Part shown: piece by piece, positions 1,674-48,307 of the stretch
Layout of the letters: each line of letters opens with the position of its first letter
Numbering within the stretch: position 1 is the first letter of the stretch
IMG/VR virus record: IMGVR_UViG_2740892112_000005
Direction: 5' to 3' (one strand)
From: a virus
Taxonomy: Duplodnaviria; Heunggongvirae; Uroviricota; Caudoviricetes
DNA: 52,480 nt
Program-made: the position numbers and the translations under genes
Notes under the pieces: model-generated
What the model saw: the letters and a program-made list of their open reading frames with translations, nothing else
What the model was told of the DNA's origin: nothing
Database searches by the model: none

Positions 1674-3733
1674 TCCACAACCTCCCCAAGCTGCGCATCT
1701 GTTAGCTCTTTATGCCAGAGACGAAAATTCCTCACATGCCCAAATAAATGGCGTAATCCTGCTGTAGTTTGTCCACCAATGCGAATGGTTGCTGTACTCC
1801 GGATATATTCCCATTTGGTTTTAGTTTCGCTGCTTAACTTACCGTTACTGACTACACATGTGGACCGTTCGGACTTTACCCGCATACCAATAAGCATTTT
1901 TTCCAGCCCGGCATTTTCATTTATTCGTCGGTCTGAACCACCTATATCACAATACGGAAAACCGTCGTACCCACCTGATGAACCAAACCCCATTACGATC
2001 CCCGCATCTGCCTGATGCCGGTATGTGTCAAAAACACGCGGTGCTGCATTTGGCGTTTTATACCAGTTCTTATGTACCTCACAAAGAACCGTAAAAGGAA
2101 GATTATAAAGATTATTCTTAATCGGAACTGTAACCATATCGCTTGCCCGCGTTACCGGTGCCGTCCCCGTAACAATAAAAGATGATGCGCCTGTACCAGC
2201 CTCAATCTGTGGAGTGGTTACATCGAGATAATCCCCTGATGCAACCATCTGCCCTGTATCCGGAGAATACTGGACAAAACCACCAACCGTATTTTCTGTT
2301 GTATCTGCTTTTAATGTAGCCTCAAAAAATATCCAGCCAGTTGCATCATCCTTAACAGACCTTGCTGTAACACGGCTTGTCTGACCTGTCTTGCTAATTA
2401 TGCGGGTGGTAAGGTTCAGGTTTGCTGCTCCTATTGATGTCCTTACCTCCCCATCATAATGTTCAAATAAAATACGAACGGCGATATTATCAACTTCACT
2501 TTTTACCCGACAGGATATAGTTACATGCTTTTCGTCCCCTGAAGTATCAACCCCTCCGGTACTCGAATACAGTCCGATAATGGTATGCGCTTTACTTGTA
2601 CCAACAATCGAATCCTGTACGACAAACCGGCCATAATTAAACCCGAAACTATCTGTGCCTGTTTCTGTAACGTCCAGTGAAGTTGACTTATTCCACTTCG
2701 AAGGGTCTGTACTGTTCTGGAAGAAGTTCGTTCTTTGCCCCTCAATAAGCAGGCCATCACACTCAAATCGTGGCTCATTAATTTCCGCCGTTTTCAGTTC
2801 GCCAGATTTGTTGATATATGTTGCCGTTGATGCGCGACTGAAATTAACCTGTTTATCACTGGCAACCTGAACCACATTATCACCAATCTTCACTTTTTTA
2901 TAACCCGGAGAATAGCCCGTAATCATATCCAGCGAATCATTAAAGGGTATCCACACATCCGGCAGCGGCTGTAAAACATATCTGTACGGCTCTGCTGTCT
3001 GGTTTGCGTATTCTCTGGCAGCATCTTCACTTGCTTTTGCTGCCGTCTGGCTTGCTGCCGATGCTTTCGCCGAGTTCGCCGCCGCTGTTTCGCTCACCTT
3101 TGCGTTGGCTTCACTGTCTTTGGCATTCGTCTCACTGGTTTTCGCTGCCGTCTGGCTGGATTTTGCGTTTTTTTCGCTGGCCTTTGTGGCTGTCTCGCTA
3201 TTTTTCGCGCTGGTTTCTGATTTTTTGGCTGCTGTCGCGGAGTTTGCCGATGCAGTCTGCGAGGCCGCTGCCGCCTGTGCGCTGTTAGCTGCATTCGTTT
3301 CTGAGGTTTTCGCCGCGTTCTTCGATGATGCCGCTGCAGTTTCGGATTTCTTTGCTGCCGCTGCGCTCTGTGATGATGCTCCGGCATGACGTGCCACTTC
3401 ATTCACCATCAGCTCAAAACGGCGCAGTGCCTCCGGCATGACATCATCTTCCGTCATGGCGCCGAGAAAATCATTCAGCGTACCTGGTCTGGAACCTTCA
3501 TAGACGGTAATGGTCCCGGCATGTGAAGGCGGAAAATCTTCAACCAGCAGGGTGACGCTGTACTGGCCATACTCAACATCCATGCTGTAACGCCCGGCTT
3601 CATCCGGATTTTCAGAGGCCACCGTGTTCACCACCACCGTGCTGCTGGTTCGTCTGGCCTTCAGCACAATGGTGCAGTTCTGTACTGGTTTTCCTGTGCC
3701 ATCTTTAAGCACGCCAGAAATTTTTACTGTCAT
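1670..3733 (-). CDS. side tail fibre protein (Stf-like) with Ala/Lys/Ser/Thr-rich repeat region
   Basis: 687 aa; repetitive AAKxSETxA segment typical of lambdoid side tail fibres; sits after lom at the end of the tail module. Confidence 0.8.
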   Translation of the reverse strand: MTVKISGVLKDGTGKPVQNCTIVLKARRTSSTVVVNTVASENPDEAGRYSMDVEYGQYSVTLLVEDFPPSHAGTITVYEGSRPGTLNDFLGAMTEDDVMPEALRRFELMVNEVARHAGASSQSAAAAKKSETAAASSKNAAKTSETNAANSAQAAAASQTASANSATAAKKSETSAKNSETATKASEKNAKSSQTAAKTSETNAKDSEANAKVSETAAANSAKASAASQTAAKASEDAAREYANQTAEPYRYVLQPLPDVWIPFNDSLDMITGYSPGYKKVKIGDNVVQVASDKQVNFSRASTATYINKSGELKTAEINEPRFECDGLLIEGQRTNFFQNSTDPSKWNKSTSLDVTETGTDSFGFNYGRFVVQDSIVGTSKAHTIIGLYSSTGGVDTSGDEKHVTISCRVKSEVDNIAVRILFEHYDGEVRTSIGAANLNLTTRIISKTGQTSRVTARSVKDDATGWIFFEATLKADTTENTVGGFVQYSPDTGQMVASGDYLDVTTPQIEAGTGASSFIVTGTAPVTRASDMVTVPIKNNLYNLPFTVLCEVHKNWYKTPNAAPRVFDTYRHQADAGIVMGFGSSGGYDGFPYCDIGGSDRRINENAGLEKMLIGMRVKSERSTCVVSNGKLSSETKTKWEYIRSTATIRIGGQTTAGLRHLFGHVRNFRLWHKELTDAQLGEVVE

Positions 3734-8383: not shown

Positions 8384-8449
8384 ATGCCCACCGATAATCC
8401 TGTTGGTTAAAACCGGTAATGGCATAAAAATTCTGAATATCTTCACATT

Positions 8450-8477
8450 TTCACAAAATCCCTGTGGCACTTATAAT
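8450..8477 (+). promoter_or_regulatory. near-consensus sigma70 promoter (TTCACA-16 bp-TATAAT) in the I-J intergenic insertion
   Basis: Direct read of -35 TTCACA at 8450-8455 and -10 TATAAT at 8472-8477 on + strand. Confidence 0.4.
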
Positions 8478-8483
8478 TTCTCT

Positions 8484-8578
8484 GCGTTAATTTTTTTTGT
8501 CGTGACATAAGAATAATTATCTATAGTTGATCTTCGTAACGCTCCCGCAGCTCCGCAACTCTGCGGGATTTTTTTATT
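8484..8578 (+). ncRNA. candidate small RNA (about 95 nt) from promoter to intrinsic terminator, antisense to tail operon direction
   Basis: No ORF of significance between promoter and terminator (CCCGCAG...CTGCGGG + TTTTTTT at 8544-8578). Confidence 0.3.
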
Positions 8579-28153: not shown

Positions 28154-30115
28154 TCATGCCGCGATGTCCGCGTTGTTCACTTCCACCTTCACACTGTCAA
28201 TCAGCAGCGTATATGTCGCCGCCTTTGATATGCCTGTCAGTTGCAGTTTGTCCGCCGCCCCTGATGCCGGAGATTTCACCAGTGTGAACGGCGTCCCCCG
28301 TTTCTCATCCAGTACCGGCGTCACCTGAATGCTGTTGTTTCCGGCAAACTCAAAAGCCAGTGTGTGCCATCCGTTATCAAAGACCCCGAACGTATCCAGC
28401 TTCGCATTCGGCTTCTTGTGGTGCATCGCGTTCAGGTTCGTCGCATCCGTCTGCAGGAAGAAGGACATCAGCATGTCGTTGCCTTCCTCTGCCAGCGTCA
28501 CTCCCTCCGGCAGGGACGACAACTGCCAGTAAATGCCCAGGGCAAACTGATTCGGCACCAGTGAACCCGGCAACTTAAACCGTACGCTCACACGTCCCCC
28601 CTTCTTCAGTAACTCCACTCCCTGTCCGGCTGCATCATGCTCCAGAAACCAGATGTGGTTTTCCGGTTTATTCAGTTGCAGGGCCTTACCTCCCGTAGCC
28701 CCCGCATCACTGACCACCGCTTCAGCAATGTTTTTGTTAACATTGTCTCCGCTCGCCGGTTTGTGATAATAGCGCCAGCCCTGTGATGCCAGGTCTTCGC
28801 CGGACGCCAGCAGACTCATCAGGGTTCGGTTACTGACCGGGGCTTCCGGCTCTCTCTCCGTACCTTCACCGGAAGGTCCGGTGGGCTTCACCGTATCAGG
28901 CTGTTTTCCGGTAATGAATTCAGCGTTTCTCCCGGCATGCACAAGAATCGCCGTTGCCAGACGGTCGGAAATAATCCCACGACGTGCCCATGATCCAAAA
29001 TGCGTTTTACGGTCAGCCGTCGTCCAGGTTTTGGCGTCCGTTCGACCACCGGCTCCGTAATACCCAATATCCGCAACATCCGGATCTTCTGACGGCTCGT
29101 TGGTACCCACATTTCGCCCGTTTTCATCCGTCATAAACGGCACAAAGAAGATTTTTTTTGCGGATTTCGTCTTGTATGCACCATACACCGCATCGTATTG
29201 CGAAGAATAAGTCTGCTTCCAGTAGTAGGTCGTGTCGCCACAAATCCAGGGAACCGATGACGGAGAGCCCCCGAGACACTGACCTCCGAATTCCGACAGG
29301 TCAGAACGATATTTTTCCACCATGGAATCAAACAGCCCCGGCTGAGTGGCGTATGCACCCTGTTTCAAATCAAACTCGCCCTGCATCCAGACCACTGCAA
29401 GCAGAATATTTTTAGGGTTGGCCTTCAGTGCGGCCTGAGTACGGGTAAGCAGGTCCTTGTACAGTGGCTTATCAACACCCCAGCGTGCCGAGGTCTCGCT
29501 TGCGCCGGTGGATTCGCTGAAGGTACCTTCATCGCCCGCCAAAAATGCAGAACCACCACGGCAGCACGGAACCAGAAGAATACCGGCATTCGCCGGAATA
29601 AACGGCAACAATTTCTTCGCGATATGTAATCCCTGCCCCACGCATCCATACTGAGCTGCGCTGGCTTTCGGGTGTGAAAACTTACTCAAATCCTGAACAT
29701 CATGCAGGCAGTGGTCCGCAGGAATAATGTCATTGTAGTTACAGGACGCACCACCCGGCGTGACAGTGCTGCGACGCGCCAGCTGTTTAATACGCGGGTC
29801 CGGACGGTCATATGTCTCCGGCAGCGGAAGCCCTTCACCATACGCCATACCGTTTGACTGCCCGGCCAGGGCAACAACAAAGTAATACTCCGGGTTGCTG
29901 GTGGTGCTGATAACTGCGCCTTCTCCATCCGACGGCTTCACCACCACAGGTGTGGTGACATCACCTTCCGCCGCAATGGCCTGCATCAGGGTATAAGGCG
30001 TGATGGCCACCGGACTGCCAAATGGCTGCCACCCCTCCTTCAGTTTTTGTGTCAGTCGTTTCGCAAGGTCTGACGGCGATGCCGCCCTGACAACATCATA
30101 GTGTTTAAATGCCAT
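28154..30115 (-). CDS. nanS-p: prophage-encoded sialate O-acetylesterase-like protein (nanS-p / YjhS-like, as found downstream of stx in Stx phages)
   Basis: 653 aa; SGNH-like esterase N-terminal segment (…VALAGQSNGMAYGE…); position between tRNA/stx slot and lysis genes. Confidence 0.75.
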   Translation of the reverse strand: MAFKHYDVVRAASPSDLAKRLTQKLKEGWQPFGSPVAITPYTLMQAIAAEGDVTTPVVVKPSDGEGAVISTTSNPEYYFVVALAGQSNGMAYGEGLPLPETYDRPDPRIKQLARRSTVTPGGASCNYNDIIPADHCLHDVQDLSKFSHPKASAAQYGCVGQGLHIAKKLLPFIPANAGILLVPCCRGGSAFLAGDEGTFSESTGASETSARWGVDKPLYKDLLTRTQAALKANPKNILLAVVWMQGEFDLKQGAYATQPGLFDSMVEKYRSDLSEFGGQCLGGSPSSVPWICGDTTYYWKQTYSSQYDAVYGAYKTKSAKKIFFVPFMTDENGRNVGTNEPSEDPDVADIGYYGAGGRTDAKTWTTADRKTHFGSWARRGIISDRLATAILVHAGRNAEFITGKQPDTVKPTGPSGEGTEREPEAPVSNRTLMSLLASGEDLASQGWRYYHKPASGDNVNKNIAEAVVSDAGATGGKALQLNKPENHIWFLEHDAAGQGVELLKKGGRVSVRFKLPGSLVPNQFALGIYWQLSSLPEGVTLAEEGNDMLMSFFLQTDATNLNAMHHKKPNAKLDTFGVFDNGWHTLAFEFAGNNSIQVTPVLDEKRGTPFTLVKSPASGAADKLQLTGISKAATYTLLIDSVKVEVNNADIAA

Positions 30116-30297
30116 GAATCCTCCCGGCCGGGATAATATTGTGAGTAAAATAAGGAGCGGGCTGAAGTCCGGAAGTTACAGGACAATGGCAGAAGAGAGA
30201 CGACAGCCCGCAATTCGAAAAAGACCGCGCAGTTGCGCAGCCTTATGAATTCTGGTTAAAATCCATTCGATTATAAAAATGTATATCTCATGCTGTT

Positions 30298-30322
30298 GCC
30301 CGAACCCACTCGGGCTTTTTTT
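30298..30322 (+). terminator. intrinsic terminator on + strand
   Basis: GCCCGAACCCACTCGGGC hairpin followed by TTTTTTT. Confidence 0.4.
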
Positions 30323-30590
30323 GCCCACAAGAAAGCCCCTCCGGAGAGGGGCTAAAGCCGCGTATCTGTATCATCATGCACATGGTGCCGGGTGCCTCCC
30401 GGTGAGTTCAGCCCGGTGCCACTAAACCCGCGTCATTCTCGTTTTGATAATCAGAGATTATACCGTCACCAGTCGCCCCTCCGCTCAGGGGGATTCACCA
30501 TGCGAAATTTTTTTAACAAATGCCCAGTCTGACAGGCAACTGTCAACTTACTGAATTGTGAGCAACATAGCATTTAACGGGGAACCTGTT
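30315..30590 (-). repeat. structured non-coding module, copy B (paralogue of 30815-31075), ending in an intrinsic terminator
   Basis: Shares with copy A the blocks CATGGTGAATCCCCCTG.GCGGAGGGGC, ACTCACCGGGAGGCACCCGGCACCATG and the terminator AGCCCCTCTCCGGAGGGGCT + U-run (- strand). Confidence 0.5.
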
Positions 30591-30599
30591 TTCTGCAGT

Positions 30600-30627
30600 A
30601 AAAAGGCCCACCGGAGCGGATGGGCCT
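30600..30627 (-). terminator. intrinsic terminator on - strand
   Basis: GGCCCA...TGGGCC hairpin followed by TTTTT on - strand. Confidence 0.4.
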
Positions 30628-30814
30628 GGAAGGATAGCGGTCATGTGATGCCGGTTTCCCGGTAACTCAGCACCGGTATCTGAGTCAACGTTTTCTCTAC
30701 TGGGTCATTTCCGATACGCCCTGCCTGCTGACAGGCTTTCATCACATCTGAAAATATAGCACCCTGACTGATACTGTAGTACCTAAGGTTCCAGAAACTG
30801 TGATGTATCCGGCA

Positions 30815-31075
30815 CAGAAAAGCCCCTCCGGAGAGGGGCTGGAGAGTGGCACTATGTGCCATTGCATGGTGCCGGGTGCCTCCCGGTGAGTTCAGTATCA
30901 GCACCTGAACCCGCACAGAAAGGATAAGGGTCGGTGACAAAACACCAGTTGCTGATTGCCCCTCCGCACAGGGGGATTCACCATGCCAGTTTCTTTTAAC
31001 AAACTCCCCGCAAACCAGACAACAGTCAACCGCCTGAATTGTGAGGTATTTAAAAATTTCAACGGGTAACTGATA
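30815..31075 (-). repeat. structured non-coding module, copy A, ending in an intrinsic terminator
   Basis: See copy B; terminator hairpin at 30821-30840 with U-run on - strand. Confidence 0.5.
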
Positions 31076-31080
31076 CCCTG

Positions 31081-31233
31081 CTAATCGCCTGATGCTTTCT
31101 TTTTCAGCAACGGGAAAGCAACAACCACCACACCCGCCACCAGCACACCGTCAGCCAGCACTGACATTATCCGGCTGCTGAAGTCCACCATCACCACCAG
31201 AAACAGCAGGAGCGCAACCACAGCCAGACGCAT
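31081..31233 (-). CDS. 50-aa hydrophobic peptide (two predicted TM segments), 8 nt downstream of TerB-like gene
   Basis: MRLAVVALLLFLVVMVDFSSRIMSVLADGVLVAGVVVVAFPLLKKKASGD; weak RBS, below the 60-aa ORF-track threshold. Confidence 0.3.
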   Translation of the reverse strand: MRLAVVALLLFLVVMVDFSSRIMSVLADGVLVAGVVVVAFPLLKKKASGD

Positions 31234-31241
31234 TTTTACCG

Positions 31242-31673
31242 TCACAGATGATTCTCCAGACGAAGGCCCAGAACACCGGCAATCTCTTCCAGCACCTTGC
31301 GCTCTTCCGGCTCTATTTCGCCGTCTGCTTCGGCAATGGCCACCGCCACATCCAGCACGTCTTCCGCTTCACGCGTATCGTGTTTCACATCCTCGATCTC
31401 ACGTAACGCCGCACGACGACCAATTTTAAAGTTCGTATCCAGCTGACCGATAATGGTTGCGCTAATCGCATTAATTTCTGACGTAAACGCGGACAAGGTG
31501 GGCTGGTTACGTAATACCTGTTCGATCTTCGCTTTCTCGGAAGCCTCACATTCACCATCGGCATAAGCCACCAGGTATGCAGCGTTAATCACTGCCTGTG
31601 CCAGATCGCGTTTTTCAAACTTTTTAATTTCCGCAGACGCTCTGCGGGTTTTCTTTTTGAAGATTCCAAGCAT
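31242..31673 (-). CDS. TerB-like (tellurite-resistance TerB domain) protein
   Basis: 143 aa from internal Met with AAGGAA RBS; paired motifs ...AVINAAYLVAYADGECEASE... and ...VLDVAVAIAEADGEIEPEE... typical of TerB-like repeats. Confidence 0.55.
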   Translation of the reverse strand: MLGIFKKKTRRASAEIKKFEKRDLAQAVINAAYLVAYADGECEASEKAKIEQVLRNQPTLSAFTSEINAISATIIGQLDTNFKIGRRAALREIEDVKHDTREAEDVLDVAVAIAEADGEIEPEERKVLEEIAGVLGLRLENHL

Positions 31674-31843
31674 TGTGACGTTCCTTTGGGTGGGTGAGCC
31701 AACGCCCGGGAGCGATCTGCCCACAGAGAAAGTCACACTGACCACTCCGTAAGCTCACCCCCGAAAGGCTCTGTGGTTGATATGCGCCGGGCGTGGCGCG
31801 GATACAAAAAAGGCCCGCAAAAGCGAGCCGGGAAAAATAAGTC

Positions 31844-32020: not shown

Positions 32021-32096
32021 TGGTGGCCCTTGCTGGATTTGAACCAGCGACCTGGCGATTATGAGTCGCTCGCTCTCACCACTGAGCTAAAGGGCC
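32021..32096 (-). tRNA. ileZ: tRNA-Ile2-like (anticodon CAU, ileX/ileZ-type)
   Basis: GGCCCTT acceptor, anticodon loop CTCATAA, very similar to E. coli ileX; cannot exclude elongator Met identity from sequence alone. Confidence 0.8.
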
Positions 32097-38585: not shown

Positions 38586-38741
38586 TTACTCCTCAGGTTC
38601 GTAAGCTGTGAAGACAGCGACCTCCGTCTGGCCGGTTCGGATTCGTACCTCGCAGAGGTCTTTCCTCGTTACCAGTGCCGTCACAATGACGGTTAAACAG
38701 ATGACGATCAGGGCGATTAGCATCGCCTTTTGCTGCTTCAT
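38586..38741 (-). CDS. hok: Hok-family type I toxin (hok/gef-like); the longer in-frame ORF to 38798 may correspond to the mok-like upstream frame
   Basis: 51 aa MKQQKAMLIALIVICLTVIVTALVTRKDLCEVRIRTGQTEVAVFTAYEPEE; AAGGAGA RBS; Hok family hallmark TM + C-terminal Cys/charged tail. Confidence 0.8.
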   Translation of the reverse strand: MKQQKAMLIALIVICLTVIVTALVTRKDLCEVRIRTGQTEVAVFTAYEPEE

Positions 38742-39032
38742 AGCCTGCTTCTCCTTGCCTTTCGGCACGTAAGAGGCTAACCTACGTGTGTAGAGCATAG
38801 ATATGGCCTCAGATTAATGTTAAGCGTCTTGCCGGACGCGTAATGTTAACTGGGGCTTTTCTCTATCTGCCTTTTGGTGTTCATGCCTGAGACAGATAGC
38901 CTCAAGCACCCGCTGCAATTCTACTTAACTCTCCTTTTCCCGCAAACCGTTTTTATCCCCAGCGGCAAATCGAATACACCACCAGCGCCACCGCCATCGC
39001 AATTCCTACCGTTGTTAATGCTTCAGGCCAGG

Positions 39033-47891: not shown

Positions 47892-47949
47892 TTTCTGGTG
47901 ACGTTTGGCGGTATCAGTTTTACTCCGTGACTGCTCTGCCGCCCTTTTT
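47892..47949 (+). ncRNA. dicF: DicF small RNA (cell-division inhibitor sRNA) with intrinsic terminator
   Basis: TTTCTGGTGACGTTTGGCGGTATCAGTTTTACTCCGTGACTGCTCTGCCGCCCTTTTT matches the DicF sequence as I recall it; immediately upstream of dicB. Confidence 0.7.
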
Positions 47950-48118
47950 AAAGTGAATTTTGTGATGTGGTGAATGCGGCTGAGCGCACGCGGAACAGTT
48001 AAAACCAAAAACAGTGTTATGGGTGGATTCTCTGTATCCGGCGTTAATTGTTAACTGGTTAACGTCACCTGGAGGCACCAGGCACCGCATCACAAAATTC
48101 ATTGTTGAGGACGCGATA

Positions 48119-48307
48119 ATGGAAACGTTATTACCAAACGTTAATACGTCTGAAGGTTGTTTTGAAATTGGTGTCACTATCAGTAACCCTGTATTTACTG
48201 AAGATGCCATTAACAAGAGAAAACACGAACGGGAGTTATTAAATAAAATATGCATTCTTTCAATGCTGGCCCGTTTACGTCCGATACAAAAAGGATGTGC
48301 ACAATGA
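48119..48307 (+). CDS. dicB: DicB cell-division inhibitor
   Basis: 62 aa METLLPNVNTSEGCFEIGVTISNPVFTEDAINKRKHERELLNKICILSMLARL...; GAGGA RBS. Confidence 0.7.
   Translation: METLLPNVNTSEGCFEIGVTISNPVFTEDAINKRKHERELLNKICILSMLARLRPIQKGCAQ

Follow-up and report, generated by a model that had tools for sequence, protein, structure and literature searches.

Three tandem STnc100-family small RNA genes face an AsxR-type gene in an Escherichia coli prophage

Organization of the locus

The DNA analysed here, referred to as the window, is a 52,480-nt stretch of IMG/VR virus record IMGVR_UViG_2740892112_000005 (Caudoviricetes). Between the genes DUF3927 and nanS-p, it carries a tandem array of three genes of the small RNA (sRNA) family STnc100, all on the minus strand, which face an AsxR-type anti-sRNA gene on the plus strand. 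An earlier sequence-only reading of positions 30298–31075 had proposed two paralogous, structured, non-coding modules. Both lie where that reading placed them (copies A and B below) and their repeats were confirmed; the number was too low, as a third module (copy M) lies between them at 30598–30771 (−). The features of the array are listed in the direction of late transcription, in which copy B is the first of the three.

30987–31075, minus: leader/promoter region of copy B with the conserved block CCTCACAATTCAG; begins directly after the DUF3927 stop codon
31017–31022, minus: copy B −35-like element TTGTCT, followed by an 18-nt spacer
30993–31001, minus: copy B extended −10-like element TGT-TAAAAG
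30810–31015, minus: STnc100 copy B (Rfam RF02076, 139.7 bits)
30864–30986, minus: copy B core (stem P1 through its 3′ strand)
30841–30863, minus: copy B linker, CAAUGGCACAUAGUGCCACUCUCC
30821–30840, minus: copy B terminator hairpin, tail to about 30811 (terminator scan)
30598–30771, minus: divergent copy M (Rfam STnc100, 30.1 bits)
30753–30761, minus: copy M extended −10-like element TGcTATATT
30643–30747, minus: copy M core
30628–30642, minus: copy M linker, GACCGCUAUCCUUCC
30604–30627, minus: copy M terminator and T-run
30533–30590, minus: leader of copy A with the conserved block GCTCACAATTCAG, 3′ of the copy M terminator (alignments)
30534–30539, minus: copy A −35-like element TTGCCT
30510–30518, minus: copy A element TGT-TAAAAA
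30323–30532, minus: STnc100 copy A (Rfam RF02076, 165.5 bits)
30380–30503, minus: copy A core (structure)
30354–30379, minus: copy A linker, GCAUGAUGAUACAGAUACGCGGCUUU
30334–30353, minus: copy A terminator hairpin, tail to about 30324 (terminator scan)

Identification of the modules as STnc100 genes

The whole window was scanned with Rfam, in which the STnc100 model (RF02076) has a gathering threshold of 47 bits, and was then scanned again with relaxed thresholds. Copies A and B both scored above the threshold and covered the full 206-position model; their E-values (2e-37 and 7.9e-31, respectively) place them far beyond chance. They are members of a catalogued prophage sRNA family, represented in Shiga toxin (Stx) phages by EcOnc27, also named sRNA103. 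Fold, terminator and prophage location are shared with the family and nothing essential differs, and the locus gave no match to any other structured-RNA family in Rfam, which records no function for STnc100.

A repeat search returned a 31-nt exact direct repeat (30381–30411 and 30865–30895), an 88-nt repeat at 80% identity (30475–30562 and 30958–31045), and a three-member repeat family around the terminators. The hairpin AGCCCCTCTCCGGAGGGGCT is identical at 30353–30334 and 30840–30821 (−) and is followed each time by a T-rich tail, as the sequence-only reading had described. Further terminators noted in that reading are present (30627–30604 on the minus strand and 30298–30315 on the plus strand) and are not separate features: 30604–30627 is the 3′ end of copy M, and 30298–30322 is that of the AsxR-like gene. 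Within 1.25 kb the terminator scan called 8 sites, corresponding to four distinct hairpins plus nested calls, versus 1.4 ± 1.2 in shuffled sequences.

Relatives of these genes have been studied experimentally. Tree et al. (2014) described convergent Hfq-bound sRNAs between a moron coding sequence (CDS) and a conserved downstream open reading frame (ORF) in prophage Sp5 and at least seven other prophages of E. coli O157 Sakai, the Sp5 pair being AsxR (EcOnc02) and EcOnc27 (PMC4104026). EcOnc27 gave Northern signals of ~235/247 nt and was crosslinked to Hfq, and its 247-nt form was destabilized without Hfq (PMC4104026); the published Northern probe is the reverse complement of positions 3068–3102 of our locus L001, within the Sakai STnc100 match. 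EcOnc27 corresponds to sRNA103 of strain EDL933, and the dyad arrangement is also described in a review (PMC7873438). EDL933 holds 11 STnc100 copies, which are transcribed, one of them being Northern-positive (PMC5331693), and overexpression of sRNA103 raised fimZ and espA transcripts. In enteropathogenic E. coli E2348/69, PasD1/2 are Hfq sRNAs validated by sequencing of ligated interacting RNAs (RIL-seq) and Northern blotting, and PasD2 is annotated as 172 nt, starting at the first base of P1 (PMC8550237); a 2026 preprint relates PasD1/2 to STnc100. Variation in the STnc100 copy of Stx2 phages has been statistically linked to the risk of hemolytic uremic syndrome (PMC12711010). STnc100 is among the most abundant sRNA families of enterobacterial genomes.

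With the Rfam assignment, and with the orthologue EcOnc27 and the related PasD1/2 validated in the literature, the proposal that the modules are compact phage-encoded sRNAs with terminators of their own was supported. It amounts to a blind rediscovery of a catalogued family and adds little by itself: STnc100 and the dyad arrangement were known previously. New here are the sub-threshold third paralogue, the modularity of scaffold and variable linker, and an additional STnc100-like copy adjacent to dicF.

Conserved fold of the core

Homologues were collected in two sets. The first was drawn from IMG/VR using the P6/P1-3′ block as the anchor (120 loci); the second was drawn from GTDB genomes using the P1-5′/P2 block, with 86 of 120 loci confirmed by an nhmmer profile. 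The 17-base pattern scan also matched Streptomyces, Mycobacterium and various metagenome-assembled genomes, as expected by chance in ~600 Gb, and these matches were removed by nhmmer. The conserved blocks, for which a search of other prophages had been suggested, were thus found in both databases and in several genera, and about 190 distinct homologues were available overall as covariation material.

The STnc100 consensus fold consists of P1 closing P2, a variable hairpin, P5, and P6, with the terminator hairpin following. Using 76 viral-contig sequences together with the window and Sp5 copies, RNAalifold predicted P1, P2, P5, and P6 unaided, with compensatory change at 17 of 28 pairs. When the terminator was included in the named structure, 95.7% of cells could pair; sliding the partners lowered this to 38–50%. 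Both sides had changed at 23 of 34 pairs, and 152 double-change cells were counted versus 26.8 in shuffles; the observed values were reached in 0 of 500 shuffles. The independent multi-genus set gave 79.8% paired versus 40–49% slid, with a few compensatory changes in P6. Minimum-energy folds of copy A, copy M, and Sakai EcOnc27 showed the family architecture, and that of copy B kept P1, P5, and P6 and not the P2 hairpin. Covariation therefore supports a core of several helices, closed by the CATGGTG/CACCATG stem (P1) with arms separated by ~110 nt, and the long-range inverted repeat enclosing smaller hairpins that had been read from the sequence held in both homologue sets.

The same inverted repeat might be taken for the remnant of a miniature inverted-repeat transposable element (MITE) or insertion sequence (IS), in which inverted repeats surround a short non-autonomous element duplicated by transposition. 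Copies are numerous (up to 12 places per genome carry STnc100 copies) and tandem duplication would fit this origin. However, the arms change by compensatory substitution, keeping pairing and not sequence, and the copies occupy one syntenic position in prophage late regions and are not dispersed. A transposase is lacking, and the ends of the modules show neither terminal repeats nor target duplications; we regard a transposon origin as scarcely credible.

It is likewise very improbable that the modules encode small proteins. PHROGs 23557, 24488, and 27294 (families of 55–59 amino acids) have matches among the ORFs that cross the modules (30279–31069, both strands), phage records annotate “hypothetical protein” there, and ribosome profiling of EDL933 gave ribosome-coverage values >1 for some STnc100 copies (PMC5331693). 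Against this, the length of sense ORFs through P1 is anything between 5 and ~80 codons, with indels changing the frame from one homologue to another; no Pfam matches were obtained, and the AUG is part of stem P1 and lacks a Shine-Dalgarno sequence. The variants of copy M differ at codon positions 1, 2, and 3 in a ratio of 8:10:9. RefSeq annotates no CDS between 30116 and 31080 (nanS-p to DUF3927) in E. coli ABU 83972, the sequence of which is identical here, and covariation of the helices is an RNA-level signal. The three PHROGs are probably families built from mis-called ORFs. The statement that no convincing ORF is present was upheld by the shifting frames, the lack of Pfam matches and the lack of codon-position bias; a coding signal and, at the module ends, a transposon signature were both looked for as findings that would speak against sRNA genes, and neither was found.

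The divergent copy M and tandem arrays

Copy M lies below the Rfam threshold (30.1 bits; E = 2.6e-4). Its helices are P1 AUGUGAUG/CAUCACAU, P2 GCCUG-UCAG-CAGGC, P5 UGACUCAG/CUGAGUUA, and P6 CCGG-GAAA-CCGG, and when folded without constraints its minimum-energy structure is that of the family, every helix having a sequence of its own (core z = −4.3). Copy M is present, unannotated, in 673 of 5426 complete E. coli genomes (~12%) as two variants. In the 91%-identical variant, found in another strain, the P2 hairpin is kept with a different sequence (CUGCC-GGAA-GGCGG), and the −10 element is conserved between the variants, the flanks differing. The B-M-A array of this other strain precedes iraM in place of nanS-p.

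Annotation by the Rfam threshold overlooks structurally intact relatives such as copy M and the dicF-adjacent copy, so that the sRNA repertoires of prophages in extraintestinal pathogenic E. coli are under-counted. Tandem STnc100 copies were found at 19 of 123 loci of the viral-contig set. The largest arrays seen are on plasmid pAPP145_2 of Pantoea sp. App145, with five STnc100-type cores at L155 3120–4482 and six at L171 899–1985; the cores are spaced ~100–500 nt apart, and the L155 array lies upstream of lysozyme/Rz-like genes.

Linkers, promoters, and RNA ends

Scaffold blocks showed pairwise identities of 0.88–0.96, compared with 0.38 for the linker, which runs from the 3′ strand of P1 to the terminator and fell into 19 sequence clusters among 75 sequences. 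The linkers of the three window copies are unrelated to one another. Two, CACUCUCC and CUAUCCUUCC, are rich in C and U; ribosome-binding sites are conceivable pairing partners for these. In EcOnc27, the Hfq crosslink peak, placed by shifting old to new Sakai coordinates by +135, spans P6, the 3′ strand of P1, the linker and the terminator.

PasD1/PasD2 (= EcOnc13) have in common with the window array the P1-P2-P5 core, the position between DUF3927 and a sialate esterase gene, and the terminator, but they lack P6, have a longer C/U-rich linker and score 41.4 bits, below the STnc100 threshold. The experimentally inferred PasD seed, UGUGAG, falls in the linker; it was not found on the minus strand of any of the three window copies. 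The leader blocks of the window contain CUCACA on the minus strand, at 30557–30562 (copy A) and 31040–31045 (copy B). The site that targets of the PasD seed have in common is reported to be this motif, which would lie within the RNA only if transcription began upstream of the proximal promoter.

In the alignment, the TTG and T..AA columns 5′ of P1 are invariant or nearly so. A −10-like element was present 3–14 nt upstream of P1 in 121 of 160 distinct homologues, versus 35 of 160 in a control window. Comparative positioning of this kind suggests that each of the three copies has its own promoter. A σ54 promoter was also considered, prompted by a chromatin immunoprecipitation–exonuclease (ChIP-exo) paper on Salmonella, and no GG-N10-GC motif was seen by eye; no LexA box was found in the leader. 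As for derivation of the sRNAs from a 3′ untranslated region, the position of the −10-like element and the start of PasD2 at P1 favor own promoters; the 235/247-nt Sakai species would fit a start or cut ~30–40 nt past the stx2B stop codon.

Genomic context and comparison with Sp5

The genes that flank the array in the window are as follows.

31242–31745, minus: TerB-family moron (Pfam TerB, 59 bits; RefSeq)
31081–31245, minus: DUF3927 moron (Pfam DUF3927, 71.7 bits; RefSeq)
28154–30115, minus: nanS-p, SASA-family sialate esterase (ORF list, RefSeq), the first late gene 3′ of the array

The order on the minus strand is Q, DNA methylase, three tRNAs, TerB, DUF3927, three STnc100 genes, nanS-p, holin, lysozyme, and Rz, with the AsxR-like gene on the opposite strand between the STnc100 array and nanS-p. 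As in the published sRNA dyads, convergent sRNA genes lie between a moron CDS 3′ of PR′/Q and nanS-p, before the lysis genes. In Sp5 of E. coli O157 Sakai the order is tRNAs, stx2AB, STnc100 (207.7 bits, directly after stx2B), convergent AsxR, and the nanS-p homologue ECs_1207. EcOnc27/sRNA103 is thus the positional orthologue of the window genes, lying 3′ of the moron and upstream of nanS-p and facing an AsxR-type gene. The two loci differ in that Sp5 has one copy after stx2AB and the window has three after TerB/DUF3927. The Sp5 linker, AGUAUACAGAGAUUAGGCAUAUACCAA, also differs from the window linkers, so the targets suggested for sRNA103 (fimZ and espA) need not carry over. The RNA modules had been assigned to the slot in which Stx phages carry stx. 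This assignment was wrong, because the Stx2 phage Sp5 has stx2AB and then the same STnc100/AsxR pair; it is TerB/DUF3927 that hold the stx2AB position here.

The tRNA trio of the window, Ile(CAU)/Arg(UCG)/Arg(UCU), matches that upstream of stx2 in Sp5. One of these genes, at 32021–32096 (−), was called tRNA-Met (CAT) by ARAGORN and is annotated as tRNA-Ile in RefSeq for the identical gene, as is ileZ of Stx phages.

Prophages of E. coli, Enterobacter, Superficieibacter, and Pantoea have the element at a constant place, between Q/morons and the lysis genes. The core was seen linked to DUF3927 or NanS-p only in E. coli-type phages. The constant place invites a mainly cis-acting explanation, in which a terminator stack (three on the late strand and one opposite) insulates the nanS-p/lysis cassette until Q antitermination and the RNAs are by-products. 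The excess of terminator-like sites (8 in 1.25 kb versus 1.4 expected) and arrays of 5–6 copies fit this view. However, a terminator needs a hairpin and a U-run only, which leaves unexplained a covarying ~120-nt core with invariant loops across genera, the positioned −10 element before each copy, and the Hfq crosslinking and abundant stable RNAs of the orthologues; moreover, the copy in the dicF-dicB spacer has no terminator. A mainly cis role is therefore unlikely, and cis insulation is compatible, as a second function, with the genes encoding independently transcribed sRNAs.

The dicF-adjacent core and the conserved loops

A fourth STnc100-like core was found elsewhere in the window.

47942–48151, plus: dicF-adjacent STnc100-like core (Rfam, 38.7 bits, below the threshold of 47; E = 6.6e-07)

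It lies directly 3′ of DicF (47893–47944), in the dicF-dicB spacer, with the dicB start codon at ~48119. The window thus holds DicF, as in the dicBF operon of Qin/Kim-type prophages, followed by this core, which has the family fold with an 18-bp P1 and P6 as CCUGG-AGGCA-CCAGG and is without a terminator of its own. With this lack and a place inside the operon mRNA, immediately ahead of dicB, it does not qualify as a free-standing sRNA gene.

The core (profile positions about 50–165) is the sole part of the family conserved outside Escherichia. Across more than 100 distinct cores of many genera, three of its unpaired elements (AAUC of J1/2, GCGG of the P2 loop, and AGGCA of the P6 loop) reach an invariance of at least 94%. 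These loops, the restriction of conservation to the core, and the presence of the same core within an operon mRNA raise the alternative that the core is the functional part. It might serve as a protein- or ligand-binding domain, a decoy, or an RNA-processing domain (e.g. an RNase substrate setting the RNA ends), with linker pairing secondary or absent. Under this alternative P1, AAUC, P2/GCGG, P5, and P6/AGGCA would form an RNA domain of Enterobacterales prophage sRNAs and of the dicF-dicB spacer, linker and terminator would be add-ons, and arrays of up to six cores would act by dosage and not by base pairing. We consider this doubtful. No partner is known, and no gene was found to co-occur consistently with the core across genera; Rfam offered no match to another structured-RNA family, and PasD, without P6, is still an abundant Hfq sRNA. 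A tRNA-like reading, with P1 and P6 as acceptor and T arms, was also rejected, as the P6 loop has 5 nt and not 7 and there is no CCA; the D-loop-like GG of the P2 loop is, in addition, absent in one subfamily.

A kissing interaction between the P2 and P6 loops was considered separately and rejected, because a variable base of the P2 loop had no compensating change in P6.

The convergent AsxR-family gene

The gene facing copy A has the following features.

30233–30322, plus: AsxR-family anti-sRNA gene, convergent with copy A
30233–30238, plus: TTGCGC of the AsxR-like promoter, followed by an 18-nt spacer
30257–30262, plus: TAAAAT of the AsxR-like promoter
30268–30322, plus: AsxR-like RNA, with 5′ variable part CGAUUAUAAAAAUGUA, conserved 3′ part, and terminator (30298–30315) with U-run

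Positions 30268–30320 (+) matched Rfam AsxR (RF02703) at 63.0 bits, exactly at the threshold of 63; the AgvB match (43.4 bits) was below its threshold of 56. Sakai AsxR occupies the same position. With the AsxR/AgvB/EcOnc03 class (RF02703, RF02702), the window gene shares the ~40-nt conserved 3′ part, the terminator, the promoter position and a convergent partner. Its 3′ part, UAUCUCAUGCUGUUGCCCGAACCCACUCGGGCUUUUU, has two differences from AsxR, both in the CUGUU segment (CAAUU in AsxR), and this segment is identical in EcOnc03. The 5′ variable region of AsxR is CGAUUAUUAAAACGAG, as against the CGAUUAUAAAAAUGUA of the window gene. With RNAduplex, AsxR gave ~−10 kcal/mol at the FnrS terminator, and the window variant gave −6.7 kcal/mol at an unrelated site, so that the FnrS pairing was not recovered. 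The sRNA sponged by this AsxR-family anti-sRNA may therefore differ from FnrS, perhaps being another core sRNA. The sequence-only reading had considered the modules to be regulatory or sponge RNAs; they do belong to an sRNA family, and the sponge-type RNA is this convergent gene and not the modules.

Interpretation of the array

The explanation that we favor, with a probability of about 0.7, is that the array represents three independently transcribed, Hfq-dependent, base-pairing sRNAs with different seeds, which together with the AsxR-type gene make up a lambdoid sRNA cluster. Each STnc100 gene would comprise a promoter with an (extended) −10 just 5′ of P1, a conserved structured core of ~105–125 nt in which P1 closes a junction of several helices, a short linker that is hypervariable and mostly single-stranded, and a Rho-independent terminator. 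By analogy with the orthologues in the literature, the RNAs (predicted to be ~150–180 nt in this strain) would be made in the lysogen as discrete transcripts and bound to Hfq via their 3′ part, and the seed would lie in the linker. The linker would probably base-pair with host or accessory mRNAs or sRNAs. Given three different linkers, a target set of its own would be expected for each of the three paralogues. Transcription from the tRNA/moron region and from the opposite direction may in addition be kept out of the nanS-p/lysis genes by the four back-to-back terminators, unless Q-modified polymerase reads through.

In this family the scaffold appears to be fixed and the linker exchangeable. 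Should the linker act as the seed, as it does in PasD, several regulators could be carried cheaply in one tandem array, and the linker catalogue (19 types in 75 sequences) would be a list of testable specificities.

Several points count against this explanation. The near-invariant unpaired loops of the core are not accounted for by a simple base-pairing sRNA model. Each anchor block served as the search pattern in one homologue set, which inflates its apparent conservation there. A strict σ70 scan (T at position 6 and at least four of six matches in both hexamers) found no minus-strand promoter, and comparative positioning was used in its stead. A start at P1 would give a 171-nt RNA in Sakai, shorter than the ~235/247-nt Northern sizes; the 5′ end might instead come from a distal start or from processing. 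The U-tails (UUUCUUGU, UUUUCUGU, and UUUUUAC) are short or interrupted and not ideal for Hfq. Finally, the effects known for fimZ and espA were all obtained by overexpression, and no direct target has been established for any STnc100 member.

Other RNA genes in the window

No homologue of PasA or PasC was found 3′ of nanS-p. The Hfq sRNA PasB of E2348/69 is encoded between a tail assembly gene and gpJ, and positions 8421–8577 have 77% identity to this intergenic region; they probably hold a PasB homologue antisense to tail genes. A sok antitoxin RNA at 38736–38911 (−; 117.1 bits) adjoins a hokD-type toxin gene in the prophage early region.

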